From IMG/VR virus record IMGVR_UViG_3300017987_000024, positions 1 to 49,789 of that record: a DNA stretch of 49,789 nucleotides; one strand, written 5' to 3'. Positions 2,898-21,775 of this stretch are shown here, piece by piece. The notes beneath the pieces were generated by a model that saw only the letters and a program-made list of their open reading frames with translations, searched no databases and had not been told where the DNA came from. The DNA comes from a virus. Both the position numbers and the translations under genes were made by a program. The first letter of the stretch is position 1, and each line of letters starts with the position of its first letter.

Positions 2898-2916
2898 TAG
2901 GAATTATCCTATTTTT
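2898..2916. terminator. Small AT-rich hairpin with U-tracts on both strands (possible bidirectional terminator)
   Basis: TAGGA-ATTA-TCCTA is followed by TTTTT on the plus strand and flanked by TTTATTT on the minus strand. It lies just after the last late gene. Confidence 0.35.
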
Positions 2917-2919
2917 CTG

Positions 2920-3189
2920 TCACTGGGTATCCCCGCCCAATTGGTGCTGAAGGAGCTTGTCCAGCTTGCCGTGGATATCCTTGATGTCCTGCCGAAATTC
3001 GGATTGCCGTGCGTCGAGGGCTCGGTGCCGCTCGTTGCAGAGTTCCTTGTTGTAGGCCGAGCCGTTGGCCCGCTTCCTCTGCCCCCAGGCAATCCCCTCT
3101 CGGCCACCCAAAACCAGGATAGCCGCGCCGACTGCCGTTCCAATTGAGTCTGCTGAACTCGCCGCTTGTGCTAGAATATCAATCATCAT
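2920..3189 (-). CDS. Small membrane protein with one TM helix and a coiled coil (holin- or spanin-like by architecture only)
   Basis: Hydrophobic segment IGTAVGAAILVLGG is followed by the charged helical stretch RHRALDARQSEFRQDIKDIHGKLDKL. It is the last gene of the late operon. Confidence 0.6.
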   Translation of the reverse strand: MMIDILAQAASSADSIGTAVGAAILVLGGREGIAWGQRKRANGSAYNKELCNERHRALDARQSEFRQDIKDIHGKLDKLLQHQLGGDTQ

Positions 3190-3209
3190 TTTCCCTCATC
3201 AAGTAGCTT

Positions 3210-4379
3210 TTATGGCGCGATGCTGCCAATCTTTTTGATATTCGCTTGCGAGGCACCAGCGATTTTCTTGATGCTCGCCCAGGCAATGCCGGCCGTCTTT
3301 GCGATATTCCCACCGGCGGCGGCTTGATACTCGAACGGCCCGAGGTCCCACCGAGGCCGCGTATAGTTGGTTACGTCAACGGTGAATACGCCGGAGGAGT
3401 CAGTCCCAGTGTCGTACAATGGGGAGTCCGTATCCTGGACGTTGTAATTGTAGACACTGTGGTCGGTGAAACACGTCGAATCCCAGGTCGCTGAGATGTC
3501 CACGCCGCTGGTACCTTCGCCCGCCCCCTGGTCGGTGGCACAGGTCGTGATCGTGTCCCACGAGTCAAAATCGTCCACGCAATCGATCGCGACGCAGCTA
3601 ATCGCAGTAGTGGTTGCGCCCGAATCCTCAAAGGCATCGTCGAAATTGCATGCTAGGGTCGTGTAGACGTACACGGTCGATCCGCCGACGGCGTGAATGG
3701 CCTCGCCACCGGACAGCCGAGTGTGCCGGTTGATGATGATGCAGTTGAAAATCGTCGTCGTGGACGCGGCATCGATCTCGACAGCGTTGGCCGCTCCCAT
3801 GGTGGAGAGAAATGAGTTGCTCAGCGTGTATGTGCCGGTGCCGTGAAACTCGACGCAGAAACCGGTCGTGGCCGTAATAGAATCATCATGAAACTGGAGG
3901 CCGTCGAACGTGGTAGGGTCGTTGGAGGCCACGCGGACACCATAGCTGTCGTCCTCAGAGGCCACTTCGAGGGTGTAGGCGTCGGTATCGTCCCAAATCC
4001 CATTGCAGCGGGCCACGCCAATCGCCCGTATGATGATCGCATCTGAGGCGAAATCCTCACAAATCCAAGAGGTCGTGTCCGGGTTGACCCACGGACCCTG
4101 GATAATGGCGTACTCAGTGTCACCTGCCTGGGCGACTCCATCGCGGGCGTCTTCCCACGCCCACAGTGACGAGTACGTAGCGGTGTACTGGGCGTCGCGG
4201 GCGGTCTGATTGGCATGCGCCGTTGGGCTGGTCACAGAGGACGTCGCGTCATAGCCCCAGGCGATCGTACCATCCCAATAGTCACTGTCAGAGACGATAG
4301 CGCAGTACACGTCGGCCGCCGACGCCAGAACGGCCGGCAGCAACAAGAGTACCACAGCTATCAATATAATCACTCTCAT
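3210..4379 (-). CDS. Fibre- or receptor-binding-like protein with signal-peptide-like N-terminus
   Basis: ORF 3210..4553 trimmed to the ATG at 4379, because the longer form would overlap the upstream gene. N-terminus is MRVIILIAVVLLLLPAVLASAAD. The body is Thr/Asp/Gly-rich and beta-type. Confidence 0.8.
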   Translation of the reverse strand: MRVIILIAVVLLLLPAVLASAADVYCAIVSDSDYWDGTIAWGYDATSSVTSPTAHANQTARDAQYTATYSSLWAWEDARDGVAQAGDTEYAIIQGPWVNPDTTSWICEDFASDAIIIRAIGVARCNGIWDDTDAYTLEVASEDDSYGVRVASNDPTTFDGLQFHDDSITATTGFCVEFHGTGTYTLSNSFLSTMGAANAVEIDAASTTTIFNCIIINRHTRLSGGEAIHAVGGSTVYVYTTLACNFDDAFEDSGATTTAISCVAIDCVDDFDSWDTITTCATDQGAGEGTSGVDISATWDSTCFTDHSVYNYNVQDTDSPLYDTGTDSSGVFTVDVTNYTRPRWDLGPFEYQAAAGGNIAKTAGIAWASIKKIAGASQANIKKIGSIAP

Positions 4380-4384
4380 TCTGG

Positions 4385-7300: not shown

Positions 7301-8347
7301 GCCGATCCCATTGACGATCATATCGGCGTCTGTGACGCGAATGATATTGTGTGAGACAATTGCGTGGAGGCAGTCCATCTTGATGTCGACAACAGCCTCC
7401 GGGCAGTTGCAGTCCACGAAGGTATTGCTGGCAACGATCGCCTGGTCGACGTCCCTGATGTAGACGGCCTCAACGTCTGTCGTTGCCGCTTTTCGTTGAA
7501 TGTCCCTGAAGTGGTTGTTGGCGATGAGGACGTCTGTGGCTTCGTGAGCCAGAATGCCTTGGGTCTCAGTGGCCGCGCCGCCGTCGATGTCAACGAAATG
7601 AGAGTCCGTGACCGTCAAGCGGCCTCGATCGGTGGAGGACGTGGTGTCCAGGCCATAGAATATCCCCAAGACGCCCATGCCGGCCACCTTGTACGATAGG
7701 TTCGAGAACGTGGTGTTGGTGACCGTGGTGTTGGTCATCACCTTACTCGTCAGCCAGAGCCCGACATTGCCGTCGTCGAACACGCAGCCGTCAATCAACA
7801 GATCGGCATATCCGCCGGTCGTCGTCCCGAAGAACATCCCATATTGGAAGTCCTCGAACCGGCAATCCCGCAGTGTGATTCTGTCGATGGTCGTGGCCAG
7901 CGTGGTGCAGGTCAGCACGGTATCAAAGGATTTGATGGTCACGCCCTGAATTTGGAGGTTGTCGCGAACCTCCAGGAAATTCGCACCGCCGTCGATACCG
8001 GGGCCGGTGATCGTGACGAGATCCGCCCCCGCACCCGCAATGGAGATGTTCGCACTGGCAATGGTGATGGCACTCCAGGTCGCCAGCGAGTAATTGCCCT
8101 CGGGGAAATAGATAACGGCGTTACCCAGTGCAATCCCCGCGTCGAAGGCCAGATCGACGGCGGGGCCATCGTCTGCGATTCCATCTCCCCCGGCCCCGTA
8201 TATCGTATCGGTCACGTTGATGACTGTGACCATGTTCTTGTGGGTGCCGTCCGCATTGTGGTCGACCCAGAACGGATAGTAAGGCGTAATCGGCTGGGCC
8301 GCCGCCACGCCACACAGCATCAGGATCAGGATCAGCAGGGTTCTCAT
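4385..8347 (-). CDS. Tail fibre or tailspike (1320 aa) with pectate-lyase-type beta-helix N-domain
   Basis: YGAGGDGIADDGPAVDLAFDAGIALGNAVIYFPEGNYSL matches the pectate_lyase_3 style motif. There are repeated NN-H-I-type beta-helix rungs. The C-terminal part contains repeated (I/V)xPSA(N/D)(I/V)xxFLG(A/Y)ATxAA segments. N-terminus is MRTLLILILMLCGVAAAQP. Confidence 0.9.
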   Translation of the reverse strand: MRTLLILILMLCGVAAAQPITPYYPFWVDHNADGTHKNMVTVINVTDTIYGAGGDGIADDGPAVDLAFDAGIALGNAVIYFPEGNYSLATWSAITIASANISIAGAGADLVTITGPGIDGGANFLEVRDNLQIQGVTIKSFDTVLTCTTLATTIDRITLRDCRFEDFQYGMFFGTTTGGYADLLIDGCVFDDGNVGLWLTSKVMTNTTVTNTTFSNLSYKVAGMGVLGIFYGLDTTSSTDRGRLTVTDSHFVDIDGGAATETQGILAHEATDVLIANNHFRDIQRKAATTDVEAVYIRDVDQAIVASNTFVDCNCPEAVVDIKMDCLHAIVSHNIIRVTDADMIVNGIGVYNGNADVVGNKIIGVTRNPIIAVNNDTSLGTVRIHDNHIENAKGKYGIVTYQKYRRVDIQGNTIAGLSGADATGAGLGSDESAADSVGIFVAGSALTGNREHVIANNLITANGDGVTDRIDYGIQLTKHATGDMRNISVINNQIFAVNYGIVTSNGGIFMQITGNTIYDAATANYSLGTATNSWVVTQGIDGIMDFETPVQFSGGLSNGSTSGGYMDFLEDTDHGTNYIRFQAPGTDIATTVYTLPAADGTDGQVLKTNGSAVLSFVTPAGSGDMLQATYDADTDGDVDVAAGGTEKSSWTQYAIPWLSATTTFGEIAIGTAGQYLKVNATTNGYEWGTIAGGGDLVSTNNLSDVASATTSATNLGLGTGDSPQFTAVNIGAATDTTMERTSAGQVSVEGSGVVLDSDIGVTVQAYDADLTTFAAIAPSANIVSFLGAATYAAARALMDLEAGTDFYSISAADAAFQALNTVLTELTALTDPGANRISYWNDSTNNFEWLDYSGWDVTPYTGGDFLTLTAHDFDVDTAAVTNGDTTHLSTADAIYDWGVAAFQPISAVLSTYAGIDPSADVQTFLGYATFAAMKGGLSIDDIITLTGIAEGVTHLGTFTGTTIADNQSIKAALQALETAVELAGGHNAVTIGTANGLSLSTQVLSLAAATNATPGAMTAAQVTALEAVDTEAELEALLELADLQGLLPWTKLATTGTWSPTGTIDLSGATVTFGLEAGDIPDLSATYEGQLANEAGLYAALSDVTEFLETGDAGSLASLTLTQAGSQLTSQTGEIFAMLAPDGRIDLRADTDVYIWLDDDNDGSEEFRILAGDDAVVFTVSESGAVTTKMDPGDGVVTGLTGVFTAHENVVVGDACYINTDGEMQIGDADAIATSSCVALAGATIAADATGVFLLNGIACETDWTWTVGGLIYLTVTGTTTNTLSQTAPSGTDDVVQILGVATHADRILFAPQLVQVELE

Positions 8348-10479
8348 CGGCTTGCACCTCGTCGTCCGCGCCGTCTAGCCGCGCGGCGTTTCTTGGGTTT
8401 GGCTTCGTAGGTCTGGAGGCCCATCCCGAACACGCTCAGAAGGCCAAGGGCGGTCCCGGCCGGCACGCCTTGATCCTTCATGGCTTCGTAAATATCATCA
8501 AAGGCCAACGGTGTCGGTGCTTCGAGGGCCGCCCGGCCAAGAGTCATGGGCTCGCCGACCACGTTTTGTCCCGAGAGCACGTCCATCGGAATCCCGAACG
8601 TGGGCGACAGCTTCCCGCGCAGGAACCTCGCCACCACCTCTGCGGACGTGTCGCCGCCGTAGGGAACATCCTCGCCCCGGATCGGTCGCACGGTCCCGGT
8701 AGTGCTGCTCTTCGTCTCTCCGGTAATCAGCCTTGCCAACAGCACCGTCACTTGCGAGATTCCTGAGAACACGTCGATCCGGCTATTGCCAAAGCGGACC
8801 TTGCCGGCGTCGGCCGATCGCAGATCGTCTTCAATCTCGCCCCCGGCCGCATAGCCCAACGCCAGGACGGCCCCTACCCCTATCAGGTATCGGGCGTACT
8901 CCTGGGCCACGAGCTTCCGCACGGCATTGCTGCCGCCCCGCTTGCCGCCTTGGGTCGTCTTGGCCCACAACGGATGGCCCAGCAGAAGTTGGAACCGACT
9001 GACGGTGTACTTCGGCGCGAAAAAGACAGTGTTGAGCCCCACTGCCGCCTGTTCGATACCGATGGACCCTCTGCCGGTCGCTTCGTTGACGAACGTCGCG
9101 ATAGCCATGGCCTCGTCGGCCGTCGGTTCCCCGTTCTGGGTCAGTGTTGCCGCCATCGTGTCGAACGAATCGGCCCGCAAGGCGTTCAGGAAGGTCAGAT
9201 ATGCCCGCTCAGAAGCCTCTACGCCCTTGAACACCGTACTGAGTATGGGAATGTTCGATCGGGCACCCCGCTCGATCAGGTGCGACATATACGCCTCTTC
9301 CATCCGCACCAGTCGCTCGCTCCCGTCGATGGGGGCAATGTAGAGCTTGCTCCGGGCATAGAGAGGGGCGTTCGGGCGGTTCAGGATCTCGCTATTGATT
9401 CGCGACGACGCCTCTTCGGAGACCAGGGCCCGCATCATATCAGGCAAGGCCCGGGCGGCACGCACCGGATGGGCCAGGCCAATGAAGCCCCCTTGCCGAA
9501 AGACGGCCGACAGGTCGAAACTGGTCTTCAGGGCCCGAATCGCATTGAAGGGCTCGGCGATGTGATACCAGATCGTTTTCGGCTTCAACTCCATCATGCC
9601 CACGCGAACATCCCGACGCAGTCGGTTCCGCTGATAGATCAGCTTCTCCAGTGCCTTGCTCTGGGGCAGGGGCGTTTTCTTGGCCTTCGGAGCGAAGTCG
9701 CCCGCCTTGATCCGGGCCTCCAGGTCGGCAATACTCTTTTCCAGCCGCTGCTTCCGAGCCGGATCGCTCTGCGATACTTGCCGCCGCAGGTCGTCGCGAA
9801 TCTCGCGCAGGGCGTCCACAGGCCCGAAGCCCTTGGCCTTCTTCCTCTTCGCCGCGGGCAGCGTCCCCGCCTCCAGATGCTGCTGGAGTGCGTTGACTTC
9901 GTCCATGACCCGCTTGACGGCCTTGGCGTCCTTGATATGCTTGCGGGCGATATTGATTTGGTCCTGGAGGCCCTGGAGCGAATCGTGCAGTTTCGCCTCC
10001 TGGATACGGTCCATGACGATCTCGCCCGATTCGATCTGGGCGTCCAGTGCGTCCAGGCGGCCCTGCAACGACTCTCTCATCTTCGGGTCGGCCGTATTGA
10101 GCCAACTTCGAAGTTTTCTACTGGTCTTGCGAAGCTGCTCGACGCTCTCGGGCCCGATCTCGCGGGGCTCCGGCGCGTCCGGGGGCTTGCCTTCCTCCAG
10201 ATACTGCTCCACCTGCTCGATCTTCTCTCGCAGGCGGCTATGGCTGCGGGCTTCACGCTTGATGCGGGCCAGCTTCTGGGCCAGGTCGTCCAACTCCTTC
10301 GCCTCATTGGTGGAGGCGTCCACGATCGCATCGACAATGGCGTTGGCGTCCATGACGGGGAAGCTCTTTTGGATCTCGCCCACCACCTCGTCAATGTTCT
10401 TGACGTCCGGGTCCTCTGCGATATTCAGCGACAACTGGTAGATGGCCAGGGCGAGTTCGGAGCAGTCTTTCTTAGGCAT
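8344..10479 (-). CDS. Internal virion or ejection-like protein (711 aa)
   Basis: Assigned by position between the nozzle and fibre genes. The N-terminal half has four ~45-aa coiled-coil repeats (L..LE.G..). The C-terminal part is Gly/Ala-rich and hydrophobic. It overlaps its neighbours by 4 and 8 nt. Confidence 0.75.
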   Translation of the reverse strand: MPKKDCSELALAIYQLSLNIAEDPDVKNIDEVVGEIQKSFPVMDANAIVDAIVDASTNEAKELDDLAQKLARIKREARSHSRLREKIEQVEQYLEEGKPPDAPEPREIGPESVEQLRKTSRKLRSWLNTADPKMRESLQGRLDALDAQIESGEIVMDRIQEAKLHDSLQGLQDQINIARKHIKDAKAVKRVMDEVNALQQHLEAGTLPAAKRKKAKGFGPVDALREIRDDLRRQVSQSDPARKQRLEKSIADLEARIKAGDFAPKAKKTPLPQSKALEKLIYQRNRLRRDVRVGMMELKPKTIWYHIAEPFNAIRALKTSFDLSAVFRQGGFIGLAHPVRAARALPDMMRALVSEEASSRINSEILNRPNAPLYARSKLYIAPIDGSERLVRMEEAYMSHLIERGARSNIPILSTVFKGVEASERAYLTFLNALRADSFDTMAATLTQNGEPTADEAMAIATFVNEATGRGSIGIEQAAVGLNTVFFAPKYTVSRFQLLLGHPLWAKTTQGGKRGGSNAVRKLVAQEYARYLIGVGAVLALGYAAGGEIEDDLRSADAGKVRFGNSRIDVFSGISQVTVLLARLITGETKSSTTGTVRPIRGEDVPYGGDTSAEVVARFLRGKLSPTFGIPMDVLSGQNVVGEPMTLGRAALEAPTPLAFDDIYEAMKDQGVPAGTALGLLSVFGMGLQTYEAKPKKRRAARRRGRRGASR

Positions 10480-13400
10480 CGTAGCACCCCGCCTTCATCA
10501 GTTCGGCCACGCGATTGACCAGTTGTGCTCGCTTGCTTCGTAACTCGCTTACTGAGGCACGTTTACGGCCGCCCTTCTTGCCCCTGCCCGTCGCTTTCGC
10601 CGCCTTTGCCTTGGCCAGTTCCTTCTGCATTTGCTCGACTTGCTCCGACTTCTCGGCCAGTTCGGTCGTCAGTTTGGCGAACTTCTCCGCTTCTTCTTTG
10701 CTCAGTTCAGCGCCCTTGGCCGCCTTCGCCCTCGTTTTCACGGCCACCAGAGAGAAATTCTGATTGATGGTCAGCTTCAATGCGTTCAGGGCCCGCCCAA
10801 TCTCGCTGTCGCTGTGGTCCAGCGCTCTGCTGATATTGTCAACTTCCGCTTCAATCGTGTTCGCCCTCGCCGACATCTCCTTAACGGCTACGGGGTCCTT
10901 CTCGCTATGCAGGCTCGCCATGACAGATTCGTGTTCGTTCTCCAGCTCGACCATGCGAATGGTCAAGCCGGCCGATTGGTAGTCTGCCAATGGGAAGGGG
11001 TTGAGGTTGATTTCCGTTGCGATGCGCAGGGCGTTTTCGGGCACCTTCTCTTGCCATGCCCGAGCCATCGCCTGCTCCCACGTGCGGCGCGACTTGGAAT
11101 TGATGGCAGCCAGGCCCAGCCTGTCGCGGTTCTTGGCGATGAAGCGTTTTTGCGGGGAGCTTAGTCGCTCACGGGGACTCTGTTCGGCGTCCAGCACTTC
11201 CTGCGTATTCGGAGGCTCGGCGGCCCCTTCGTCGGCGGTTTCCTGTGGCTTTTCTGTGGCTACAGATTGTGAACCGGGCGCGGCCTGCCCGGTGGAGGGG
11301 TTAAAAGAGCGAAGGCCAGCTATTAGTTTGTCTTCTGCTGTTTCCGGTAAGCCGCTACGCATACCGTATTCGTATCGGTCTGCCGCGAGAGCGTCTTTGT
11401 ATTCATCAATAAGCGACTGGAGCACCGAGTCAAGGTCTTCTTCTGCCTCCAACTCAGCGACAATACCTCCAACGTTCAGGTCGCCGTCGTCATACCTTTC
11501 CACAAGACTCTTAATCGGGGTGGCCGGCTCCGCGTGCTGTTCGTCGGGAGTTTGCAACGACATGATTCGTCGGCCCAAGTCCTCGGTAGATATTTCCCCT
11601 CGGGCGTGCTGAGCCTTCAGTTCGGTAACCTGTTCCGCGAAGGCTTTTGTCCCTCCAGGCCGCTCGGGGTTCGGAGGCTGTTGCTCGCGGCCCACCCCTT
11701 TATCTTCCGTCACGCCTGCGATTATACCTTCTTGCCCTAGAGCCTGTCCAGCCGCCAGCGCCGCGTCTGCCCCTAACTCGGCGTTCTCGACCTCTTCAAT
11801 GCCCTCAGCTATTGCTCTTTCGTATGCTTCGGAATGGCTGCCTGGGACATCAAGCTGACGCCCCATCGCCGGAATTTCTGCCACCCGACCGGCGCCTTCT
11901 TCGCGAATTGTTACTGCATCTAACTCGTATCCACCCGCTGTCGTCGGCTCCTTCCGGAACTTGAGCGATTCTTTCACAACAGCCTCGGCGCCAATATCTC
12001 CTTTTAGCCATGCTTGAAATGTTTCTCGGCTTACGGCTGCTTCCATCCAAGATGGTGCTGTCTGCCTCCTCGCGCCTTCTATCGACTGCACAGCGTCCGC
12101 CGTCTCGCCTGTAACCTCCGGCGCAGACTCAGCTTCCGGTTGCATTTCCGGTTGCACAGCCGCCTCCGTCTCAGCTACCCCAGCGGTAGCACCTTCAGCT
12201 CCAGTCTCAGCGGCCTCTTTCCCGCCGGTCTCCGCAGCGGCCTCTTCCTGCGCCCGATCCAGATCATCGGCCAGCGCCTCCATTGCCGCCACCTCGTCGG
12301 AGTAGGTCCGTGCCTTGGCTGAAAGCTCATCTTCCATCTTGCGTTTCGCTGATTCGTATCGCTGCTGGTTTCGCCATTGACCTTCATTCTCGGCCCCAGC
12401 CATGGCTTGGTTCATCATGTGACGGCCCATATTGAACGTCCCGCCCACCGCCGCCCCGCCGCCGGCCGCCAGTAACACCCTCCGCACAGCCTCGTCGGCG
12501 TCTATGTCCTTGTACGTCGACTCCCCTCCCAGTGCCGCACCTTCCTGCAAGCCTTCCTCCAGGGCCTCGCTAATCGAGCCGAACCCGAATTGAGCGCCAC
12601 GCTTGATGCCTTTCGAGACGATCTTCTCCGTGACGGCGCTCAACAGCTTCTCCGCACCCAAAGCACCGGACATTTCGATAGCGGCCGCGGCGATACCCAC
12701 CCCAGCCTTGATCTTCAGGGCCAGTTCTTCCGGGGCGCCACCGGCACGGGCATTCTGGTAGGCACTTTCACCTTCCACCGAATACCCAACCATGAAGGCC
12801 CCCAAGGGCCCCGCCGCAAAGGAGGCGGCGGTAGTGGCCGTGATATAGGGCACAGTCTCGGCCACCATGCCAAACAGCTTGGCCATGGCATCGTCCCGCT
12901 TCATAACGAGGTCGGGGTGTTGGGCGGCTTCGTAGTACAAGCGGGAGTTGGCCTTGTGCTTGGCCACCATGCGTTCAGCGTTCTCACGGGACAACGGGGG
13001 AGCCCACCGGCCGTAGCCTGGCTGTTCGTTCAACTGGCCCAAGGTGCCGGTAAAGCCACTGAGCACGTTGGCCATCCCGGCGTCCAGCCGCTTCTCGAAG
13101 ACATCTTCCCAGTAGGGCCCAACGCGGGCCTGTTCTTCGCGGGCCCGGAATATCTTGTTCCACGCCCACACCTGCCGGGCCATCGAATCCTCGTTCTCCA
13201 GGGCCCAGGCCGTGATCTCGCTGGGCTTGAGCACCTTGCCGAATAGCTGCCTGCTCAGTTCTTCCTCGGCGTTGAAGGTGAAAGACTCTGAGGCCCCGGT
13301 AACGGCCGAGAAAAAGAGCGATGCGGCCAGCTTGTCCTCGAACTCCTGGCGATCCCCTTCCAGAGGCGCCAAGGCTTCGTCGTAAGCGCCCCGCATCGGA

Positions 13401-13606
13401 TGAGGTATAGCCTCGCGCAGAGACCCGCCTTGGGCGGCGACATAGTCCCACGTGTTGGCGGGGACGGGCAACGCCACTCCGAACCGCTGGGCAAACTGGG
13501 GAAAGGGGATATCGCTGTAATTCTTGGCGTGCAGGGCTTGCGCCAACTGGATATCATCCATGTCATTGTAGTCGGGGTTCTGTGTTCTGAATTCGGTGAT
13601 CTGCAT
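10472..13606 (-). CDS. Large internal virion or ejection-like protein (1044 aa)
   Basis: Assigned by size and position. It is mostly helical, with a Gly-rich hydrophobic patch LLAAGGGAAVGGTF and an acidic low-complexity centre. Confidence 0.75.
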   Translation of the reverse strand: MQITEFRTQNPDYNDMDDIQLAQALHAKNYSDIPFPQFAQRFGVALPVPANTWDYVAAQGGSLREAIPHPMRGAYDEALAPLEGDRQEFEDKLAASLFFSAVTGASESFTFNAEEELSRQLFGKVLKPSEITAWALENEDSMARQVWAWNKIFRAREEQARVGPYWEDVFEKRLDAGMANVLSGFTGTLGQLNEQPGYGRWAPPLSRENAERMVAKHKANSRLYYEAAQHPDLVMKRDDAMAKLFGMVAETVPYITATTAASFAAGPLGAFMVGYSVEGESAYQNARAGGAPEELALKIKAGVGIAAAAIEMSGALGAEKLLSAVTEKIVSKGIKRGAQFGFGSISEALEEGLQEGAALGGESTYKDIDADEAVRRVLLAAGGGAAVGGTFNMGRHMMNQAMAGAENEGQWRNQQRYESAKRKMEDELSAKARTYSDEVAAMEALADDLDRAQEEAAAETGGKEAAETGAEGATAGVAETEAAVQPEMQPEAESAPEVTGETADAVQSIEGARRQTAPSWMEAAVSRETFQAWLKGDIGAEAVVKESLKFRKEPTTAGGYELDAVTIREEGAGRVAEIPAMGRQLDVPGSHSEAYERAIAEGIEEVENAELGADAALAAGQALGQEGIIAGVTEDKGVGREQQPPNPERPGGTKAFAEQVTELKAQHARGEISTEDLGRRIMSLQTPDEQHAEPATPIKSLVERYDDGDLNVGGIVAELEAEEDLDSVLQSLIDEYKDALAADRYEYGMRSGLPETAEDKLIAGLRSFNPSTGQAAPGSQSVATEKPQETADEGAAEPPNTQEVLDAEQSPRERLSSPQKRFIAKNRDRLGLAAINSKSRRTWEQAMARAWQEKVPENALRIATEINLNPFPLADYQSAGLTIRMVELENEHESVMASLHSEKDPVAVKEMSARANTIEAEVDNISRALDHSDSEIGRALNALKLTINQNFSLVAVKTRAKAAKGAELSKEEAEKFAKLTTELAEKSEQVEQMQKELAKAKAAKATGRGKKGGRKRASVSELRSKRAQLVNRVAELMKAGCYDA

Positions 13607-15159
13607 CAGCGAATCCCCAGCGGGTCTTTTTTCTTCACACTCGGTTTCTTGGGTGGGTTGTTGGGTGACTGCGAATAGAAGTCATAACCCATCGTCGATT
13701 CCCAAGACGCAGGCTCATTGGAGCCCCAAGGGAATAGCCGGTCTACCAATGGCAACTTGCCCACCACGTCCTTGACCGCCTCCTCAATGCGTGGTTGCAG
13801 AATCCGGTTGACCTCTTTGCGGAACTCGTCCGGCTTCCATTGCTGGTCAGGGGCGGTGAACTCCTCTGCCACCTGCCGGATTTCCTTCATCACATCGCCG
13901 AGGGCGCTATCCAAACCCAGTTCGTCTACGACCTCGTCCTCCGACGTGAATTTCGGCAGCAACACCCGCTCGGCCAGCACGCCCGCGTCGGCAATTGCCT
14001 TGTCCGCCCGCGTTCGATGGGTCTTGCCACCCAATTTCTCGAAGTATTCAGCATCGGCTTCGTCCAAGGTATTGAAATTCTCCACATAGACGGCGTCCCA
14101 TTCGTCATACGACATCTCGCCTGCTATGAACCGATCTGTCGTTCGGCTGACAATACCGAAAGCCCTGGACCGTTCCTCTCGCGTTGGACTATCTTCTACT
14201 GCGCGAGTCAGTGCCTGGCTCATCATCCATCCGGTCTCTTCACTGTTGTCACCGTTGCGCATGGCGGCTTCGATCAGGGCCGGCGTCATCTCTTCGCCCG
14301 GCTTGGCCGCACCCCGCAGAGTCTGAAGCACCGCAGCCCTGAGATTGCGGTCGTTGGTCTTGACCCGCTCGGCGTTGACCTTGTCCGCTTGAATGCGTGC
14401 GGCGCTCAGTTCGAGCTCCACCCCCTTCTTCAGTGCCCTGATATCGTCCGGGCCGAACAAGGGCACGTCGATCTGATCGTCCAGAACACTCCGGGGGGCC
14501 ATGTCGTTGGCATGGTCGAGAATGCCCGGGTCTCCGGCGGCCAGGGCCTGCTGTGCGAGGTAGTCCCCCACCACGCGCCGGGTGAAGTCGCGCTTCGCCT
14601 GCTCGGCCACCGCGCGGGTCGGTACGCTGTCGACCGGCTGGGACCCGCCGTTGAAACCGCTCTCGATATGGGTCAGGCCCGCCGATAGATGCGAGACCAT
14701 GTCGGTGTCGTCGAGGTAGGCGCGCGATTCGTACAGCCCCTTGAGCCCGGACTGGTAGTCGGCGTTGGTATTCGCCGCCGCCTGGACCGCCGCATTGTTG
14801 CCGATCCACCCCTCCCATTCCGCCATCGATTCGTCGAGTTCAAGAGACACCACATTGCGGGCCTGTGGCTGGGTAATACCACTCATCACGCCCTTGCGAA
14901 TGCGCTCCCGACTCTTGGCGAAATGGCCCCGCCACTTCTCCGGCTCGGCCTGGTGCTCTTGCATATAGGTCCGCAGGGCCTGCCGCTCCTTCTCCTTGGC
15001 GATATTGCCGCTGGAGACCTGCTGTCGGTAGAGTGCGTCAATCTCTTCGTTGCTCTCGTGGACCAAGGCCCCAAGAATGGTATCGGCGACCCCGATTCTC
15101 GCTCGGTGCTCTGGTGCTCCGTAGAGAGCGCTGCGCGATGGTGTAAAGGCTCTAGCCAT
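13606..15159 (-). CDS. Internal virion-like protein (517 aa)
   Basis: Long coherent ORF in the tail/ejectosome block. Its stop overlaps the next start by 1 nt. Confidence 0.75.
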   Translation of the reverse strand: MARAFTPSRSALYGAPEHRARIGVADTILGALVHESNEEIDALYRQQVSSGNIAKEKERQALRTYMQEHQAEPEKWRGHFAKSRERIRKGVMSGITQPQARNVVSLELDESMAEWEGWIGNNAAVQAAANTNADYQSGLKGLYESRAYLDDTDMVSHLSAGLTHIESGFNGGSQPVDSVPTRAVAEQAKRDFTRRVVGDYLAQQALAAGDPGILDHANDMAPRSVLDDQIDVPLFGPDDIRALKKGVELELSAARIQADKVNAERVKTNDRNLRAAVLQTLRGAAKPGEEMTPALIEAAMRNGDNSEETGWMMSQALTRAVEDSPTREERSRAFGIVSRTTDRFIAGEMSYDEWDAVYVENFNTLDEADAEYFEKLGGKTHRTRADKAIADAGVLAERVLLPKFTSEDEVVDELGLDSALGDVMKEIRQVAEEFTAPDQQWKPDEFRKEVNRILQPRIEEAVKDVVGKLPLVDRLFPWGSNEPASWESTMGYDFYSQSPNNPPKKPSVKKKDPLGIR

Positions 15160-15161
15160 AA

Positions 15162-15677
15162 TCAGTGCATCCGATAGACAGGTGTCTTCTTCTCGTAGAA
15201 CAGGCCCGTCCCCTTGCGACCCAGGCCCTCGCGTCGCTGTGCGAAGGCCAGTCCGCCGGTCAACAGCGACCCGAACGCCTCCGTTCGTCCCGCCCGACGG
15301 GCCGAACGGCCTGCCCGGCGATATTGGTCCGCCATAAAGTTCCGCTGGCGTATCGTCTCAGTGGCTTCGCCCGCGACCAGGTTCTTTCGTCTCGCGACCT
15401 TGGCGGCAATGGCCTTGGTCAAGGTGACAACCGAGCCGGCGGCCCGCAACCCGGACTTGCCCGCCCCCGCCCGGACTTGCCCCTGTGCCGTACGGCCTTC
15501 GCGGTCGAGTTCCCGCATCTCATCGGTGGCGCGGCGTTCAGTGTATGCGTTCTGGCGGCCCATCTCTGCGGCCTGGGCCTTGTAGGCTTTCTCCGCCTCT
15601 TTGCCGGCCCCGTACTGTTCAACCGCTTTCCAGCCGCTGACGCCCAGCAACCCTACTGATATTGGATCAAGTCCCAT
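15162..15677 (-). CDS. Small internal virion-like protein
   Basis: ORF 15162..15737 trimmed to the ATG at 15677 (MGLDPISVGLLG...) with GAGGG upstream. The protein is Ala/Arg/Gly-rich. Confidence 0.65.
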   Translation of the reverse strand: MGLDPISVGLLGVSGWKAVEQYGAGKEAEKAYKAQAAEMGRQNAYTERRATDEMRELDREGRTAQGQVRAGAGKSGLRAAGSVVTLTKAIAAKVARRKNLVAGEATETIRQRNFMADQYRRAGRSARRAGRTEAFGSLLTGGLAFAQRREGLGRKGTGLFYEKKTPVYRMH

Positions 15678-15685
15678 ATTGCCCT

Positions 15686-16036
15686 CTATCGCACCAAAAT
15701 ATTGCCCTGCTGGATGAAGCCCAGGTGCTTGAACCATGCCGGTTTGTCCACCGTCGCTTCGGCGTAGACCCGGTACAAGTGCTCCTGAGCGATGCTATGG
15801 GCCATCACTTCCCGCGCGGTACGTAGTATCGTCTTGCTATGCCCTTTGCTGTCCGGGCCGAGCATCGCCCACGCCTGGCCGATTCCCTGGACCCGCACCC
15901 CCCCGATCGCCACTACCGTGGAGCCTTCCAGCAGCGCGAAGGCCGGACCCGCCACGGCGTTGAGACATGCAGTGCCGTCCGGCTGGACGCCCGCCAGTTC
16001 GCGAAAGTGATCCACAGTGTAGGGTTCAACATTCAT
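15686..16036 (-). CDS. Small GNAT-like N-acetyltransferase
   Basis: VRVQGIGQAW fits the (R/Q)xxGxG/A acetyl-CoA loop. The RVYAEA...WFKHLGF tail is typical of GNATs. ATGA overlap with the upstream gene. Confidence 0.6.
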   Translation of the reverse strand: MNVEPYTVDHFRELAGVQPDGTACLNAVAGPAFALLEGSTVVAIGGVRVQGIGQAWAMLGPDSKGHSKTILRTAREVMAHSIAQEHLYRVYAEATVDKPAWFKHLGFIQQGNILVR

Positions 16037-18450
16037 TCCGTTGCCACCTCCATGTTGACAGTCACCGAGCGTACGGTCAGCGGCACGGGGTCCGTCTCGT
16101 AGATCGTTACGACCGGCTTGCGGCTATCGCTCCGCAGGAAGGGTGCGTACCCGCGGCGAGGCTTGTAGCCGGTGTAAGGGTCCATTGATGTGGCGAAATC
16201 GTCGTCAGAGAAGATCCAGTCGGCCGCTTTGTCCGTACTGGCGCCGACGTGAGCGCCCATCGTCTCGATGAAGTCCACCGCGATCGACTTGATGCGGCTC
16301 GCGCGACTCTGTGTCTCCTGGTCCACCAGCGGCATCGTCTGGAGCGTGGACGTGTAGGTCAGGCCCACGATCGCGACGTCGTATTCGTCCTCCACGTCCA
16401 CAACGCCGCTGCCGTTGACGGTAAACGAGCCGACGGGTCGGCCGTCGGCGTAGACCCCGCAGGATTCGGCCACGGCCCAGGTCATACCCTCCCACGTATC
16501 GCCGCTCTGCGTCAACCCGCCGCCACCGCCGCTCGTGCCATATCCCCCGCAGTCGACGTACCAGCAATAGTCCGAGTCCGTGCCCCAATCCATCGCCTGG
16601 AACTGCTCGATATAGCGAACCGTGCTGGAGTTCACCGTCCGCTTGACCACAACCCAGACCTCTTCGTCCAGTCGCGTCGTGCCATCGGCGCGGGTCGAGC
16701 CGCCCGGCACCACCGCCACCGACTCGAATTCGTCCCAGGTATCAGAGTCCGTCTGCCCGGTAATGTGCCGCGACCACGCCAGCACTTCATGGCGGCGCTC
16801 GTAGGTCAGGGCCAGTAGCTGACCGTCCGCTCGAACCGCCCACAATAGGGGCTCCGGCCGCTGCTGAAAGGCCAGTTGGACGATTCCGCCGTCGGCGATG
16901 TGCTCGGCCAGGATCGTCAAATCTTCCGCAACGTAGCGATCCTCGGCGTACGTGTAAGTCACTTCCCGCACTCGCTCGGCTCCACGTTCGACGTAGAGCA
17001 GGGTATCGCCGGCCTCGATTGCGTCCATGTAGGCGCAGCCGTAACGACTCTGCTGGCGGTAGATGGGCGTCTCGGTGGGAGTAATGGCGACCTCCGTAGA
17101 CCCCAACCGGCCCACGCCGTCGGTCGTTCCGATCATCAAGTACTCGGCCGACGTCATCCACTGGATCGGACTCATGCCGGGCAAAACGTAGGTCCACGCC
17201 TCGTCGGCGTTCTCTCCGTCGCCGTCTGTGAAATCGTCGTAATCGGCGTCCGTACTACTCACCACCGAACCCCAAACCGTCTGGGGGTAGGATTCAGAGC
17301 CGCCGTAGATACACCGCTGCTCGTGATGCTCCACGCTGCGGGGCCAGCCTCGATAATCGCTCCAGACCCCTTCGCTCCATTTCGTGGTCGCAGCAGTGTC
17401 GGTCAGGTCGGAGAGCACGGTGGCCGTGACGGAGGTCGTACTGGCATAGGTGGCAATCCGAACCACGCCATAGTCCATCGCCTCGCGCCGAACGATTGTG
17501 CCCGTAGGGGCCACGCCGAGGCCGCCATATTCGCTCATTACGAATCGGTACTGAACGTCCTCTTCCTCTTCGTCGGCCGTGTAGGTCCATCGCTGCTGAT
17601 AGGGCGTCGCATGATAGACATTGGCAATACTCCACACCGTCGTCCAGGTGCTCCCTGCGTCAACGGAACGCTTGAGGGACACAATGCCCGTCCATTTCCC
17701 CTCGATCGTACCATCAAACTCGCCGGTCAAGGTGATGGAACTGGTGGGAGTGCCGTCGGTTGCTACCGCTTCCTGAAGCGTGGCGGTGGGAGACAGATGG
17801 CCGATTTCCCACAGGGCCCCAACGTGCTCCGCATTGAACAGGGCTGAACTGGCCGTCAGCGTGACCGTTCCGGTGGTCGCACTGGGCGTGATCGTTATGG
17901 CCCCGTCGTTCTCGTCCAGAAACGGGCCGGTCTCGAAGTCGATCTTGGACAGCGTCCAATCGGTATGGGAGGCTGAATTGCGCGTCAGCTTGTAGGGCGG
18001 GTAGTCGGGGTGGACGAATCGCATGTATTGAGCGTCTTGAGTGTACTGCAACTCAAAGACGTCCGATTTGTCCCACGGCGTCGCCAGTTCATAGGCCGTC
18101 CCGTCCAGGACCTGGGCCCCGGCGCGGTAGAATCGCATGTACTCGTCGCCCAACTCCAGGACGTAGGTGTCGTCCGTGGAATACTGGCACGCAATGACTC
18201 GGGTCGCGTCGTCAGAGTCCTTGACGGTAGCGATATACTTCGTTCCCGGCCGGCGAGTGACGGGCCCCTGGCTGCGAACCAGCATATTCTCCAGCGTGCG
18301 GGCCCCGTTGTAGTAACGGGCAAAGTCGGTACGGCCCTCCATTTGAGGGCTCAATTCGCCCGCGTTGAACTGGGTCAACGTCACGCTGCGGGGCGTCTGT
18401 CCGGCGCCGACCGCCGCGAGCCATAGCACAAGCAGTAGGACCCGCCTCAT
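16033..18450 (-). CDS. Nozzle or tail tubular protein B-like (805 aa)
   Basis: Assigned by size and position after the adaptor. The N-terminal FNAGELSPQMEGRTDFARYYNGARTLENMLVRSQGPVTRRPGTKYI is recalled as typical of podovirus nozzle or stabilisation proteins. Leader-like MRRVLLLVLWLAAVGAG. Confidence 0.7.
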   Translation of the reverse strand: MRRVLLLVLWLAAVGAGQTPRSVTLTQFNAGELSPQMEGRTDFARYYNGARTLENMLVRSQGPVTRRPGTKYIATVKDSDDATRVIACQYSTDDTYVLELGDEYMRFYRAGAQVLDGTAYELATPWDKSDVFELQYTQDAQYMRFVHPDYPPYKLTRNSASHTDWTLSKIDFETGPFLDENDGAITITPSATTGTVTLTASSALFNAEHVGALWEIGHLSPTATLQEAVATDGTPTSSITLTGEFDGTIEGKWTGIVSLKRSVDAGSTWTTVWSIANVYHATPYQQRWTYTADEEEEDVQYRFVMSEYGGLGVAPTGTIVRREAMDYGVVRIATYASTTSVTATVLSDLTDTAATTKWSEGVWSDYRGWPRSVEHHEQRCIYGGSESYPQTVWGSVVSSTDADYDDFTDGDGENADEAWTYVLPGMSPIQWMTSAEYLMIGTTDGVGRLGSTEVAITPTETPIYRQQSRYGCAYMDAIEAGDTLLYVERGAERVREVTYTYAEDRYVAEDLTILAEHIADGGIVQLAFQQRPEPLLWAVRADGQLLALTYERRHEVLAWSRHITGQTDSDTWDEFESVAVVPGGSTRADGTTRLDEEVWVVVKRTVNSSTVRYIEQFQAMDWGTDSDYCWYVDCGGYGTSGGGGGLTQSGDTWEGMTWAVAESCGVYADGRPVGSFTVNGSGVVDVEDEYDVAIVGLTYTSTLQTMPLVDQETQSRASRIKSIAVDFIETMGAHVGASTDKAADWIFSDDDFATSMDPYTGYKPRRGYAPFLRSDSRKPVVTIYETDPVPLTVRSVTVNMEVATE

Positions 18451-19685
18451 CCTGTCAATCTCCGCTCAAAAGCCGTCTTCTGTTTCTCACGCGACCGATG
18501 CCGATTCTCCACCCGGTAGTGCCCCGGCTTGGCCAGCAGTTCGTACTCTTCCAGCAGGCGACGACGCCGTTCGTAGTCGTGGGTATCCAGTGCCATCTCC
18601 GCCGCCAGCCGCGTGGCAAAGGCGTTCTTGAAACTCTCCGGATAGTATTGCGGCTGATCGGAGCGGGCGTTCTGGGTGTAGGCGACGTACTTGATGTAAG
18701 CGCTGTCACCGTCGGCGTTGGTCAGGACGTTGGTCGCGAGCATCATGCCGGTGGAGTCGTATTCGTAGTCCACGTCCTCGGCCCAGGCCGCCCCCAACGT
18801 GCCGTCGGTGTTATACAGCGTCCAGTTGCCGTTGCCGTCGTCGTCCGCCGGTTGGCCGTCGCTCGTATCGTCGGCGCTGGTATGATCGGTAGAGCAATAG
18901 TACGCCTGATCGTCGGAGCCCTTGACCACGTGGGAGTAGCCCCGGAAGTGGCGCGGCTCGCACCGGTAGCCGTGCGCCCGGCCCGGTTCGTCCTCCAAGT
19001 CGCCCTCGTACATCTGCCGGACCAAACACAGATAGTCGTCGGGCAATTCAAAGAGGTAGTCCCATCCGCCGAACGCCTGATTGATCTTGCGCGGTTGGCC
19101 CAGGTCGGCGTGCTCGCATGCGAATTCCGGCTGCAATTCCTCCAGCACCTGCCGCAGGATCGGATCGTACAGCATCACCGCCAGCCGAATATCGGGATAG
19201 TCCGTCTCACTGACAGAGGTCCAATCGGCGAACTGATCGGACGTGATGCTCTCGAAGAACGTACTGGCCTGGGCCGTGCGACCGCCATTGAGGATCGCCA
19301 GGGCCCGGTTGACCAGGTCGGTTTTGGCCGCCGCCGTGGTGGGTGTCGCCGTCGCGACAGTCTCGCCGGAGCCCTCCCGATCCAGGGCCAGCATCCCCAC
19401 CACAATGTCGGAATCGGCGGGCGACGCCCCGGCTCGCAGTCGCACCTGAAGGTCGAAGACCGCCCGGCTCGTGATCGCCGTCGGAAAGTTGGCCACGTAA
19501 TACTGACTGCCCGACCCTTCTTCCGTCAGGCCCGAGACGCGGTAGTCGCTGGCGTCCCGACCGGCCGTGCCCCACTCTTCAAAGTCCGCCCCCGTCGGAT
19601 ACCACACCTCCGACGTGCCCTTCTTGAAGACGTACAGGTCCAGCGTATTACCGCTGGCGAAAGGAAACCGCGCTTCCCTGGCCAT
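18447..19685 (-). CDS. Head-tail adaptor or tail tubular protein A-like (412 aa)
   Basis: Assigned by position upstream of the nozzle gene. The central DLVNRALAILNG...FELPDDYLCLVR pattern resembles gp11-type adaptors. Confidence 0.6.
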   Translation of the reverse strand: MAREARFPFASGNTLDLYVFKKGTSEVWYPTGADFEEWGTAGRDASDYRVSGLTEEGSGSQYYVANFPTAITSRAVFDLQVRLRAGASPADSDIVVGMLALDREGSGETVATATPTTAAAKTDLVNRALAILNGGRTAQASTFFESITSDQFADWTSVSETDYPDIRLAVMLYDPILRQVLEELQPEFACEHADLGQPRKINQAFGGWDYLFELPDDYLCLVRQMYEGDLEDEPGRAHGYRCEPRHFRGYSHVVKGSDDQAYYCSTDHTSADDTSDGQPADDDGNGNWTLYNTDGTLGAAWAEDVDYEYDSTGMMLATNVLTNADGDSAYIKYVAYTQNARSDQPQYYPESFKNAFATRLAAEMALDTHDYERRRRLLEEYELLAKPGHYRVENRHRSREKQKTAFERRLTG

Positions 19686-19687
19686 GG

Positions 19688-20068
19688 TTACACCTCTTCG
19701 AGATACAGCCTCACGTCAACCGTCAACGTCTGATCCGCCCCGCCGGCGTCGGCGCTGGGGTCCACCGAGACCGTCAGGTTATTGCCGAACAATGCAAACG
19801 GATTGAAGTCGGCGTCCGGGGAGCCTTTGTTGCTATCGCCCAGAAGAATGTGATGCGTCCCATCCGCCTTGCCGGAGACCGTGAAATACTGGCCGCCGTC
19901 GTCAGTGTCCGTAATCGTCACAGACACCGTCGGGCCGCCCGTTACCGACGAGACCACGATATCGACCCGCGTACACTTGCCCGTGACATCCGGCAGGGTC
20001 GTGGTCTGGGCGGCGTGCCCTTCGCCCGTGATCCAGTCGAGTTGTGCAAACGCTTTCTTGTCCATCAT
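19688..20068 (-). CDS. Hypothetical beta-rich virion-module protein (126 aa)
   Basis: Track ORF tightly packed in the structural block. Confidence 0.65.
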   Translation of the reverse strand: MMDKKAFAQLDWITGEGHAAQTTTLPDVTGKCTRVDIVVSSVTGGPTVSVTITDTDDGGQYFTVSGKADGTHHILLGDSNKGSPDADFNPFALFGNNLTVSVDPSADAGGADQTLTVDVRLYLEEV

Positions 20069-20137
20069 AGCACCTCAAATCAGCCGGCGAGGCCGCGTGG
20101 AGGACCCGAGTGCGGACCCCGCCGGCGCCATGCACTT

Positions 20138-21748
20138 CTACTGCGCCGTGACCGTGGTCCCGTCAGCAAAAGGAATCCACGTCATGTACCACTTGATCGC
20201 ACCGGTGGTCGCTCCACCGGCGGTCTGCTCGATCATGCCCTCGCCACAGAACCATTGCCGCATCGAGTTGGTGTTGCCAGCCGTGTCTGAAATCGGAGTC
20301 AGCACCGACTCGTCGGCGTCGGAGAACACGTAGCGTGTCCCCACCACGTCGGCGTTGGTCTCAACAGCCGTACTGAAATCAGAGTCGATAAACCCTGCAT
20401 CGGCATCAAGATCGATTTGAATGGTGTTCGTCACCGCACCGATCTCGGTCGTGACAACACCGGTAAAGGACGTAATGAGAATAGCCCCGCCGTCAACGTC
20501 GAACAGATCATCGCTCTGGGACGTGGCCGTCATGGTAGAGGCGTACGTGCGACCGGCAATCGTGGTCGTCCCGTCCACCTTGTCACTGATGGCCACCAGC
20601 GAATCTTCCCGCCGGTCATAGGCCGACGTATCGCCGCCGTCGTCCAGGATGTTGGCGAGCACCGTGTCGTCAGGCACCTCGGCCGTCATATCGACGGCGT
20701 CGGTCGTATCGGCACAGGCGATCTCCATCCAGTGGTCGAGGTCTTGATGAATGACCCACTCCGGCAACCCGTCAACACCGGCGCTGCTCGCCAGCACATT
20801 GCCCGACTCCATCATGGCACCAGGGTCCAGAATGGCCGCCTCTGTGTCACCGTACAGGTTGTTCCCAATCAGCCATCCCGTCGCGTTGGCCGTGAACTCG
20901 ATGGCGTGCTGGCCGGTCGTGAGGTTCTGGATGTCGTTGTAGGCGATGTACTGCTCCAGGTCGATATCGTCGGAGTGAATAGCCCCCTCGGAAAACTCCC
21001 CGATAACCGTATTGCCAACAATCGTCGTACCGTTCTGGACACCCGTATCGAGGTCCACCCAGTTCGTCGCACCCACGGCGTCGGCCGTGTACTGAATGCA
21101 GTTAGCCACCGTCAATCGGTCGGCCCCTGTCGCGACAATAATCGCTCGGACAAACTCGAAAGACGAGGTTGTCGGCTCCGGAAAGACCAAACCGTCGAGC
21201 ACGCAATCGTCGGCCGCCGCTTCTACGGACACCCCGACAACCACCGCCGAGATCCCCGCCAGGAAGCGGCCTCCGACAATGCGGACGTTCGCCGCTCCCA
21301 GGGCCACGGTTGTGTCGGTGTCGGCAAAGGTATACGTGCCCTGATTGGCGGCATTGCCACAGTGCCAGATCGTGATCCCGGCCACGTCGGCGTCCCACAG
21401 ATTCGCGGCACTGCCGCTCTCGGCGTGGCCTGATGCAACGTAAATCCAGTCGCCGTTGTCGGCGGTACAGAGGTTGATGGCCTCGTCCAGGGTATCCTTG
21501 GCGAACTCCCAGCTAGTACCATCGCCTTCCGCCGTGACATTAGAGTCAACGTAGAAGACGCTGCCTGTGCCGGGCGGGGCCACGCGGTCTTCCAGTTCGC
21601 CCATGATCCGGTAGAGAGGATCGTTGTAGGTCCCCGCACCCAGATAGCCCCGATTGTTGACATAATACCGCTGGTCGTACTGGAGCGCCCCAAAGCTCGG
21701 GGCGCTCAGCATCGCCAGCAGACACACACACATGAACAGACGTTTCAT
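20138..21748 (-). CDS. Beta-helix-like protein with signal-peptide-like N-terminus
   Basis: The GGAGA RBS fits the second ATG at 21748 (MKRLFMCVCLLAMLSAPSFGA). The body has repeated V/I-G-N-x rungs. Confidence 0.8.
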   Translation of the reverse strand: MKRLFMCVCLLAMLSAPSFGALQYDQRYYVNNRGYLGAGTYNDPLYRIMGELEDRVAPPGTGSVFYVDSNVTAEGDGTSWEFAKDTLDEAINLCTADNGDWIYVASGHAESGSAANLWDADVAGITIWHCGNAANQGTYTFADTDTTVALGAANVRIVGGRFLAGISAVVVGVSVEAAADDCVLDGLVFPEPTTSSFEFVRAIIVATGADRLTVANCIQYTADAVGATNWVDLDTGVQNGTTIVGNTVIGEFSEGAIHSDDIDLEQYIAYNDIQNLTTGQHAIEFTANATGWLIGNNLYGDTEAAILDPGAMMESGNVLASSAGVDGLPEWVIHQDLDHWMEIACADTTDAVDMTAEVPDDTVLANILDDGGDTSAYDRREDSLVAISDKVDGTTTIAGRTYASTMTATSQSDDLFDVDGGAILITSFTGVVTTEIGAVTNTIQIDLDADAGFIDSDFSTAVETNADVVGTRYVFSDADESVLTPISDTAGNTNSMRQWFCGEGMIEQTAGGATTGAIKWYMTWIPFADGTTVTAQ

Positions 21749-21775
21749 CGTCATGTCTCCTTTTGAAATCTCGGT

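Follow-up and report, generated by a model that had tools for sequence, protein, structure and literature searches.

The textbook view holds that the parts of a tailed phage are all made and joined in the cytoplasm. Here we describe the tail module of a viral sequence of 49,789 nucleotides (IMG/VR record IMGVR_UViG_3300017987_000024, positions 1 to 49,789; this whole 49.8-kb stretch is called the window), in which four large proteins of 805, 536, 1320 and 389 amino acids (aa) begin with leaders resembling signal peptides. The closest described systems are the gp12-type nozzles of T7 (6R21/7BOY), Carin-1 (8CK1), LME-1 (9EFK), Pelagibacter phage HTVC010P and Ralstonia phage RpY1, which share with the 805-aa protein the family phrog_376, the gp11–gp17 gene order and the fold (Foldseek E-values from 5e-55 to 3e-22). 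The solved nozzles of this type and the GenBank matches are leaderless, whereas the nozzle clade of the window adds a signal-like segment of ~17–25 residues. A T7-type tail module with signal-peptide-like leaders on its external parts is established here as a new observation.

Export signals are known from phages of other kinds. The pIII and pVIII proteins of filamentous (Ff) phages have cleavable signal peptides, and these virions are assembled at or beyond the inner membrane. In one account, filamentous phages are described as hijacking the host secretion machinery (PMC4823517). Ff phages lack an icosahedral head, do not package their DNA in the cytoplasm and insert every virion protein into the membrane; in contrast, the window phage has leaders on outer tail parts only, and its head module is conventional. 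Signal-peptide and signal-arrest-release (SAR) endolysins, T5 Llp, and lambda Bor and Lom are exported through Sec during infection or lysogeny but, unlike the tail proteins of the window, are not virion components. An outer-membrane protein (OMP) beta-barrel and a lipobox protein that the window also encodes are of this non-virion exported kind, like Llp and Bor/Lom. The extracellular tail development of the Acidianus two-tailed virus offers a functional analogy only, in that morphogenesis proceeds partly outside the cytoplasm; this virus is archaeal, its architecture is unrelated, and it has no signal-peptide-based partitioning of parts.

The four leaders were scored with a home-made rule-based heuristic, not a trained predictor. 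A protein passes if its n-region has a net positive charge, if 10 or more consecutive uncharged residues average at least 2.0 on the Kyte-Doolittle scale, and if positions −3 and −1 are small residues. An earlier note on this DNA had quoted these N-termini as signal-like, each with a basic n-region, a hydrophobic core and a small-residue c-region. All four open reading frames (ORFs) were located on the minus strand with the quoted sequences, and by the rule-based check all four have the three-part pattern and pass (Table 1). The n-region charges are +1 to +2, and the hydrophobic cores span 13, 19, 14 and 20 residues. The note had also described the pattern as exclusive within the block, and indeed, among genes for 100 aa or more from the capsid gene to the 389-aa gene, only these four pass. 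At the background of 5.1% measured in related loci, at least four passes in 13 would arise by chance with P = 0.003; the leader is kept in relatives, and chance is therefore irrelevant. True start codons downstream of the hydrophobic segments, which the note had named as a possible refutation, were not found; Shine-Dalgarno (SD) spacing, ATGA coupling and independent gene calls back the annotated ATGs. A GGAG-type SD sequence lies 8–9 nt 5′ of the ATG in all four genes (nozzle, GGAG at 9 nt; 1320-aa, GAGG at 9 nt; 536-aa, AGGAG at 8 nt; 389-aa, GGAG at 8 nt), with ideal spacing for the MKRLF start of the 536-aa gene at 21748. In the 805-aa and 1320-aa genes the start codon shares an ATGA with the stop codon of the gene before, the 536-, 805- and 1320-aa proteins have identical starts in independent gene calls made on the source contig, and the 389-aa frame has a coding GC content at third positions of 0.72. 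The nozzle cannot start past its hydrophobic segment, because its next ATG (codon 37) falls within a conserved motif and the profile match already begins at residue 22.

The leaders do not fit other classes of signal. A lipobox (L-x-x-C, signal peptidase II) occurs in none of the four window leader proteins and in one of 106 nozzle leaders, and the type IV prepilin motif G/F-T-L-I-E (cleavage at the slash) in none of the 106. An RR pair, as in the S/T-R-R-x-F-L-K motif of twin-arginine translocation (Tat) signals with their mildly hydrophobic h-region, is found in just 15 of the 106, most having KK, KR or RK, and the h-regions are strongly hydrophobic. On these motif counts Tat, lipoprotein and prepilin signals were rejected. 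A SAR domain was rejected as well, since the leaders are rich in Leu, Ile and Val (mean Kyte-Doolittle ~2.5–3.9), whereas SAR domains are weakly hydrophobic and rich in Gly, Ala and Ser.

The 805-aa protein, called nozzle-like in the earlier note, is a bona fide nozzle by family match, fold and synteny. It matches phrog_376 over aa 22–802 (E = 4.5e-164), and its gene lies between those for the adaptor and the gp13/gp14-like internal proteins. An AlphaFold2 (AF2) model built from a 27-sequence alignment reached a predicted local distance difference test (pLDDT) score of 78.8 and retrieved the Carin-1 nozzle (8ck1_A; TM-score 0.74, E = 5e-55), LME-1 orf18 and T7 gp12 (6r21_a; E = 3e-22) from the PDB with Foldseek. 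The leader was modeled as a helix at aa 2–16 with low pLDDT (55–67). The two solved nozzles recovered by sequence search have no leader, their conserved motif lying at most ~20 residues from the chain start. All 212 GenBank phage nozzle matches align from query residue 18–28 onward and start 3–16 residues ahead of the F-x-x-G-E-x-S-P motif, so that none of these cultured relatives carries a nozzle leader.

Environmental relatives of the nozzle do carry it. The earlier note had asked whether homologues keep the leader; of the 120 nozzle homologues nearest to the window protein (35–51% identity) in a collection of 5.8 billion proteins, some 105 have a signal-like N-terminus, and those failing the heuristic are mostly truncated or narrowly under its thresholds. 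Across these 120 homologues the physico-chemical pattern is kept and the sequence is not. In 102 nozzle leaders selected by the heuristic, which itself requires the small −3/−1 pair, the n-region has a median of 4 residues with a charge of about +2, and the hydrophobic core a median of 14 residues (interquartile range 11–16), reaching 18 or more in 10 of the 102. An F-N-A-G-E motif follows ~29 residues past the Met of leader-bearing nozzles. The family comprises 16,879 clusters at E ≤ 1e-3 and 7,481 at E ≤ 1e-30; among its top 150 representatives at 50% identity, 60 bear leaders. N-terminal lengths are bimodal, with 23–35 aa from Met to motif in nozzles with a leader versus 7–14 aa in those without. 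On a coarse neighbour-joining tree (110 columns), leader state requires 16 Fitch changes versus ~43 after shuffling, indicating strong clustering, and the leader-bearing nozzles form one large clade that includes the window protein, plus several smaller groups. A single-protein scan of GTDB genomes gave no matches, whereas an alignment-based scan did find some. By these comparisons of predicted N-termini, the nozzle leader is a clade-wide trait of a podovirus lineage with T7-like tails.

The leaders are confined to one part of the virion. We compared eight loci with leader-bearing nozzles (the window, L001, L002, L016, L017, L021, L024 and L027) with 16 loci whose nozzles are leaderless. Among ORFs of at least 200 aa, 31 of 77 bear leaders in the former and 8 of 156 in the latter (Fisher p = 7e-11). 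Each locus of the leader clade has 3–5 such ORFs in its tail module and more when smaller ORFs are counted (3–8 outer-tail proteins), the small leader-bearing proteins measuring 110–390 aa. The carriers include the nozzle, the proteins before the adaptor and past the nozzle, beta-helix proteins, and the big protein whose gene directly follows those of the capsid. In the same eight loci no leader was found on the capsid, ~150-aa, adaptor, gp13/gp14-like or internal proteins. The 536-aa protein, a putative beta-helix protein in the earlier note, has no Pfam or PHROG match; its homologues in L002 (614 aa), L017 (1422 aa), L001 (241 aa) and L016 (1318 aa) align from aa 1–3 and all have leaders. 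A Y-[DG]-x-x-x-Y motif is kept within ~4 residues of the leader end in these relatives, as in LTYDQANY and LTYGPDHY. These patterns firmly establish that the leaders are translated, under selection, modular and limited to external tail parts. That the trait is clade-wide, confined to outer tail parts and modular was not foreseen in the earlier note.

Leader-bearing tail proteins extend beyond the clade of the window, because a podovirus of another type (L049; Phage_stabilise PF11134; 67.7-kb contig; GC 0.41) has five signal-like leaders on tail-module proteins, encoded at 2319–3566 and 13627–19411, one of them on an 805-aa beta-helix protein. In L017, the nozzle gene is directly followed at 12298–13663 by genes for an AdoMet decarboxylase-like protein (PF02675) and a DUF3326 protein, and a giant internal protein with an ART-PolyVal domain (PF18760) is encoded at 18179–22301.

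Modularity is clearest in the 389-aa protein. The earlier label of this protein as fibre-like did not hold, for AF2 models a pectate-lyase-like beta-helix instead, with weak Foldseek matches to Pel9A, pectin methylesterases and tailspikes and a pLDDT of ~49 in the leader segment. Nor do its relatives keep the leader: all 12 of its closest homologues (32–45% identity) are leaderless, mostly starting M-A-[DNT]-V-Y-[CS]-A-I. Against 11 homologues, the window protein has a clean 20-residue insertion, RVIILIAVVLLLLPAVLASA, directly after Met1 and ending in ASA. Three leaderless homologues were traced to contigs and lie inside the tail modules of unrelated phages. Because the homologues are leaderless and reside in such modules, the leader was gained by a mobile spike module on its entry into this lineage. 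The 412-aa fusion protein shows the opposite change. Its aa 121–407 correspond to the leaderless adaptor of relatives (BLAST, L001/L016/L024), and its aa 2–114 to the mature N-terminal domain of a protein that in L016, L024 and L001 is separate, bears a leader and has its gene just ahead of that for the adaptor. The start M-AREARF aligns exactly with position +1 of AYG/ANEVR, IEA/ASEIR and VNG/ADEIR (the slash marks the predicted cleavage site). This fusion is also a Rosetta-stone link between the adaptor and the protein that bears a leader in relatives and has lost it here. Leader presence and absence thus switch in three independent families (389-aa, 412-aa and nozzle), and in the first two the small −3/−1 residues immediately precede the ancestral N-terminus. 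As judged from these alignments, the leader can be gained or lost as a unit whose end coincides with the predicted cleavage site. In the 1320-aa protein, phrog_7458 (tail spike) matches aa 29–108 (E = 1.2e-4) and the repeats in its centre are similar to fibre proteins of cyanophages; the first 500 aa form an orphan region, for which a single weak match was returned (P0275, which carries PF12708).

We infer a working model for leader export, leader cleavage and the site of tail-head joining. The leaders may be genuine Sec signal peptides of the signal peptidase I type that export the outer tail parts, with the tail completed on adaptor-capped heads outside the cytoplasm; we put this slightly below an even balance of belief. 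The positive n-region and strong hydrophobicity point to an N-in/C-out topology with the mature domains outside the cytoplasm, and the low model confidence of the nozzle and 389-aa leaders supports this reading. Outer tail proteins would be targeted to the Sec translocon, their mature domains would cross the cytoplasmic membrane, and the leader would be cut at an A/G-x-A/G site, leaving an N-terminus like that of leaderless homologues. Head assembly and DNA filling would take place in the cytoplasm, and the leaderless adaptor would cap the heads and form the interface. Because the nozzle must sit on a cytoplasmically packaged head, joining would occur beyond or after the inner membrane, with nozzle and spikes meeting the heads when the compartments meet, e.g., when a holin opens the inner membrane, or post-lysis. 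The fuller version of this model, a two-compartment morphogenesis in which head, portal, adaptor and ejection parts are cytoplasmic while nozzle, spikes and accessory proteins are Sec-exported, mature in the periplasm and are joined on inner-membrane breach, is a more tentative proposal that we regard as somewhat unlikely in its entirety.

Several observations weigh against export. In T7-like phages the tail seals the portal, and a head awaiting an exported nozzle would therefore need another means of DNA retention. The domain fused in the 412-aa protein can fold and work from the cytoplasm, because it is joined, leaderless, to a cytoplasmic adaptor. No signal peptidase or Sec component was found among the window ORFs scanned. 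Cys content does not clearly point to disulfide folding in the periplasm: leader-bearing proteins contain more Cys than the others (0.90% vs 0.61%, p = 0.016), but the difference stems from the Cys-free ejection proteins, and leader-bearing proteins are no richer in Cys than those of the capsid and adaptor. The three large internal proteins of the window have 0–1 Cys each. A full-text literature search turned up no tailed phage whose nozzle or tail proteins were described as having signal peptides, and we know of no precedent among tailed phages.

Two further observations concern Cys and Sec. The gp14-like and large ejection proteins (window 8344–15159; L016, L021, L024 and L027) have 0–2 Cys in 150–1960 residues, and capsid, adaptor and tail proteins contain 1–2.5% Cys. 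SEC-C is the zinc-binding C-terminal motif of SecA, and it stands at the N-terminus of a 113-aa protein (GRNDPCPCGSEVKYKLCCG) whose gene lies between those for scaffold and capsid. This protein was considered as a partner of the leaders and rejected, as the gene occurs only in the phage of the window and not in those relatives whose sequences cover the head module.

The core of the earlier note, that virion-module proteins have export-signal-like N-termini unusual for tailed phages, stands, while the three explanations it offered (membrane anchors, secreted depolymerases and envelope-associated assembly) fare unequally. Uncleaved signal-anchors might tether the outer tail proteins to the inner membrane as an assembly platform or timing device until lysis frees them. 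The high hydrophobicity of the leaders (mean Kyte-Doolittle ~3) would suit signal recognition particle (SRP) or membrane targeting, the 536-aa and 389-aa leaders have uncharged stretches of 19–20 residues, and T4 proheads and baseplates go through membrane-associated assembly steps. The typical nozzle core nevertheless falls within the ~7–15 residues of a cleavable signal peptide and is too short for a stable transmembrane helix, small −3/−1 residues stand exactly where leaderless homologues begin, and a positive n-region would still place the protein bulk outside the cytoplasm, the same topology problem that export faces; we consider anchoring disfavoured and unlikely. A helix that evades Sec and is kept in the virion for oligomerisation, as a plug or for membrane insertion at infection would spare the nozzle any topology problem on a cytoplasmically filled head, and AF2 does place a helix in the leader. 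Similar leaders nevertheless occur on the nozzle, on beta-helix spikes and on small proteins, which are unrelated to one another, close homologues in three families function without them, and only the physico-chemical pattern is kept, at low pLDDT, which makes a retained helix very unlikely.

Secreted depolymerases that are not virion parts cannot account for the nozzle and misfit the 536-aa family with its conserved tail-module position; for the 1320-aa and 389-aa beta-helix proteins this explanation is possible. A mixed scheme, compatible with Sec export of outer tail parts, would treat the nozzle and 536-aa protein as exported tail parts and the other two as free secreted polysaccharide depolymerases. 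The 1320-aa protein passes nearly directly from its leader to a pectate-lyase-like region without a recognisable virion-anchor domain, and the 389-aa protein is a short beta-helix. Both genes, however, occupy the T7 gp17 position directly past the internal protein genes, and the leaderless 389-aa homologues in tail modules of three unrelated phages fit an exchangeable virion spike module, so that we find the mixed scheme quite improbable. An annotation artefact, in which the hydrophobic segments are untranslated or chance ORF extensions upstream of the true starts, is hardly credible. Metagenomic start calls can err, and the homologues P0005 and P0158 look truncated, but the SD spacing, the ATGA coupling and the position of the next nozzle ATG all speak against it, as does an in-frame hydrophobic pattern kept in more than 100 divergent sequences. 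The remaining suggestion of the note, an envelope-associated assembly route, is favoured by the comparative data, from which export, cleavage and the place of assembly may be proposed.

The OMP beta-barrel and the lipobox protein of the phage indicate a diderm host with a periplasm, in keeping with export of the outer tail parts. Genome bins containing leader-bearing nozzles were assigned to Phycisphaerae, Pirellulales (two), Planctomycetota, Omnitrophota, Desulfobacterales, Neomarinimicrobiota and Bipolaricaulis. An association with bins of the Planctomycetota-Verrucomicrobiota-Chlamydiota (PVC) group was not significant (5 of 8 leader-bearing vs 5 of 17 leaderless nozzles, Fisher p = 0.19), and these are mostly phage-sized contigs that are possibly mis-binned. 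Two loci in PVC bins with leaderless nozzles (L030 and L034) have signal-like proteins just upstream of the nozzle. The evidence for a Planctomycetota host is no more than suggestive, and two-compartment assembly may possibly be a clade-wide strategy tied to Planctomycetota/PVC hosts with an enlarged periplasm.

Three signal-like N-termini lie outside the tail block. The 220-aa OMP beta-barrel ORF (MRHPRMIVAIVLLLVVTANAQ, with a Met start a few codons in) has a signal peptide and a PF13505 match just under the curated cut-off (E = 2e-6); the gene stands on the strand opposite to the structural genes, near an integrase, and looks like a lysogenic-conversion 'moron'. The 65-aa lipobox protein (MKRKRNWLLLILLLLAGC) ends ~4 nt inside the start of the downstream Dam methylase gene, and the 179-aa signal-like protein has no family match; both could be spanin or exclusion candidates. 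Lipoboxes are also present in some other small neighbouring proteins.

The window is an essentially complete genome of a temperate podovirus-like phage, whose minus-strand tail block follows the T7 gene order from gp11 to gp17 (Table 1). Its source contig is also JGI 3300017989 Ga0180432_10000841, with a length of 49,685 bp. Its remaining genes encode two tyrosine integrases, ERF, a PDDEXK nuclease, RusA, Dam methylase and the OMP beta-barrel with its own signal peptide. It contains no tRNA genes, no attachment site was identified for the two integrases, and it has no match to GenBank phages at the DNA level. A 124-aa head-module protein consists mostly of AEEAKAAEEAK repeats. In the composition profile, GC falls to 0.56 and GC skew flips sign at ~29200–31700, where the minus-strand structural genes abut a plus-strand block; this is probably a divergent regulatory region.

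Table 1. Features of the window, with positions counted from its first nucleotide.
Feature	Position	Strand	Remarks
Tyrosine integrase	575-1621	-	PF00589, E = 5e-18
Beta-helix (pectate-lyase/tailspike-like) protein, 389 aa	3210-4379	-	leader aa 1-21
Leader of 389-aa protein	4317-4379	-	MRVIILIAVVLLLLPAVLASA then A; A-S-A at -3 to -1; passes heuristic
Tail fibre/spike at T7 gp17 position, 1320 aa	4385-8347	-	leader aa 1-17
Leader of 1320-aa protein	8297-8347	-	MRTLLILILMLCGVAAA then Q; A-A-A at -3 to -1; passes heuristic
Three large internal/ejection proteins, 517/1044/711 aa	8344-15159	-	T7 gp15/gp16 synteny; without leaders
gp14-like internal virion protein, 171 aa	15162-15677	-	PF24072 T7_gp14, phrog_418; without leader
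gp13-like internal virion protein, 116 aa	15686-16036	-	phrog_308, E = 2.8e-5; without leader
Nozzle / tail tubular protein B, 805 aa	16033-18450	-	phrog_376
Leader of nozzle, aa 1-17	18400-18450	-	MRRVLLLVLWLAAVGAG then Q; V-x-A or G-x-G; passes heuristic
412-aa fusion including adaptor (gp11-like)	18447-19685	-	phrog_394 at aa 168-408; without leader
126-aa protein	between 536-aa and 412-aa genes	-	
536-aa tail-module protein	20138-21748	-	leader aa 1-20; first large gene past capsid and 152-aa genes
Leader of 536-aa protein	21689-21748	-	MKRLFMCVCLLAMLSAPSFG then A; S-F-G at -3 to -1; passes heuristic
Capsid and 152-aa genes	21776-23291	-	phrog_212, phrog_427; both without leaders
Major capsid protein, GP7-type, 333 aa	22290-23291	-	PF20911 GP7, E = 6.9e-51; without leader
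Small SEC-C-motif protein, 113 aa	23456-23797	-	PF02810, E = 8e-10
Scaffold-like protein	between portal and SEC-C-motif genes	-	
Head-module protein, 124 aa	24884-25258	-	
Portal	25510-27294	-	PF12236
Terminase	27592-29202	-	
OMP beta-barrel, 220 aa	33515-34177	+	signal-like N-terminus
Tyrosine integrase	35152-35943	+	PF00589, E = 4e-24
179-aa protein	36429-36968	-	signal-like N-terminus
65-aa protein	40126-40323	-	signal-like N-terminus with lipobox

In many environmental phages, the carriers of conserved export-like signals include an essential and structurally well-understood part, the nozzle. Should these signals function, completing the tail beyond the inner membrane would be a new assembly route in Caudoviricetes, and two-compartment assembly, if confirmed, would be categorically new. 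Such a route would bear on tail-protein folding, on DNA retention before tail addition and on the coupling of lysis to assembly. It would also affect the annotation of structural genes in metagenomes, where leader-bearing 'secreted' proteins may be virion parts.

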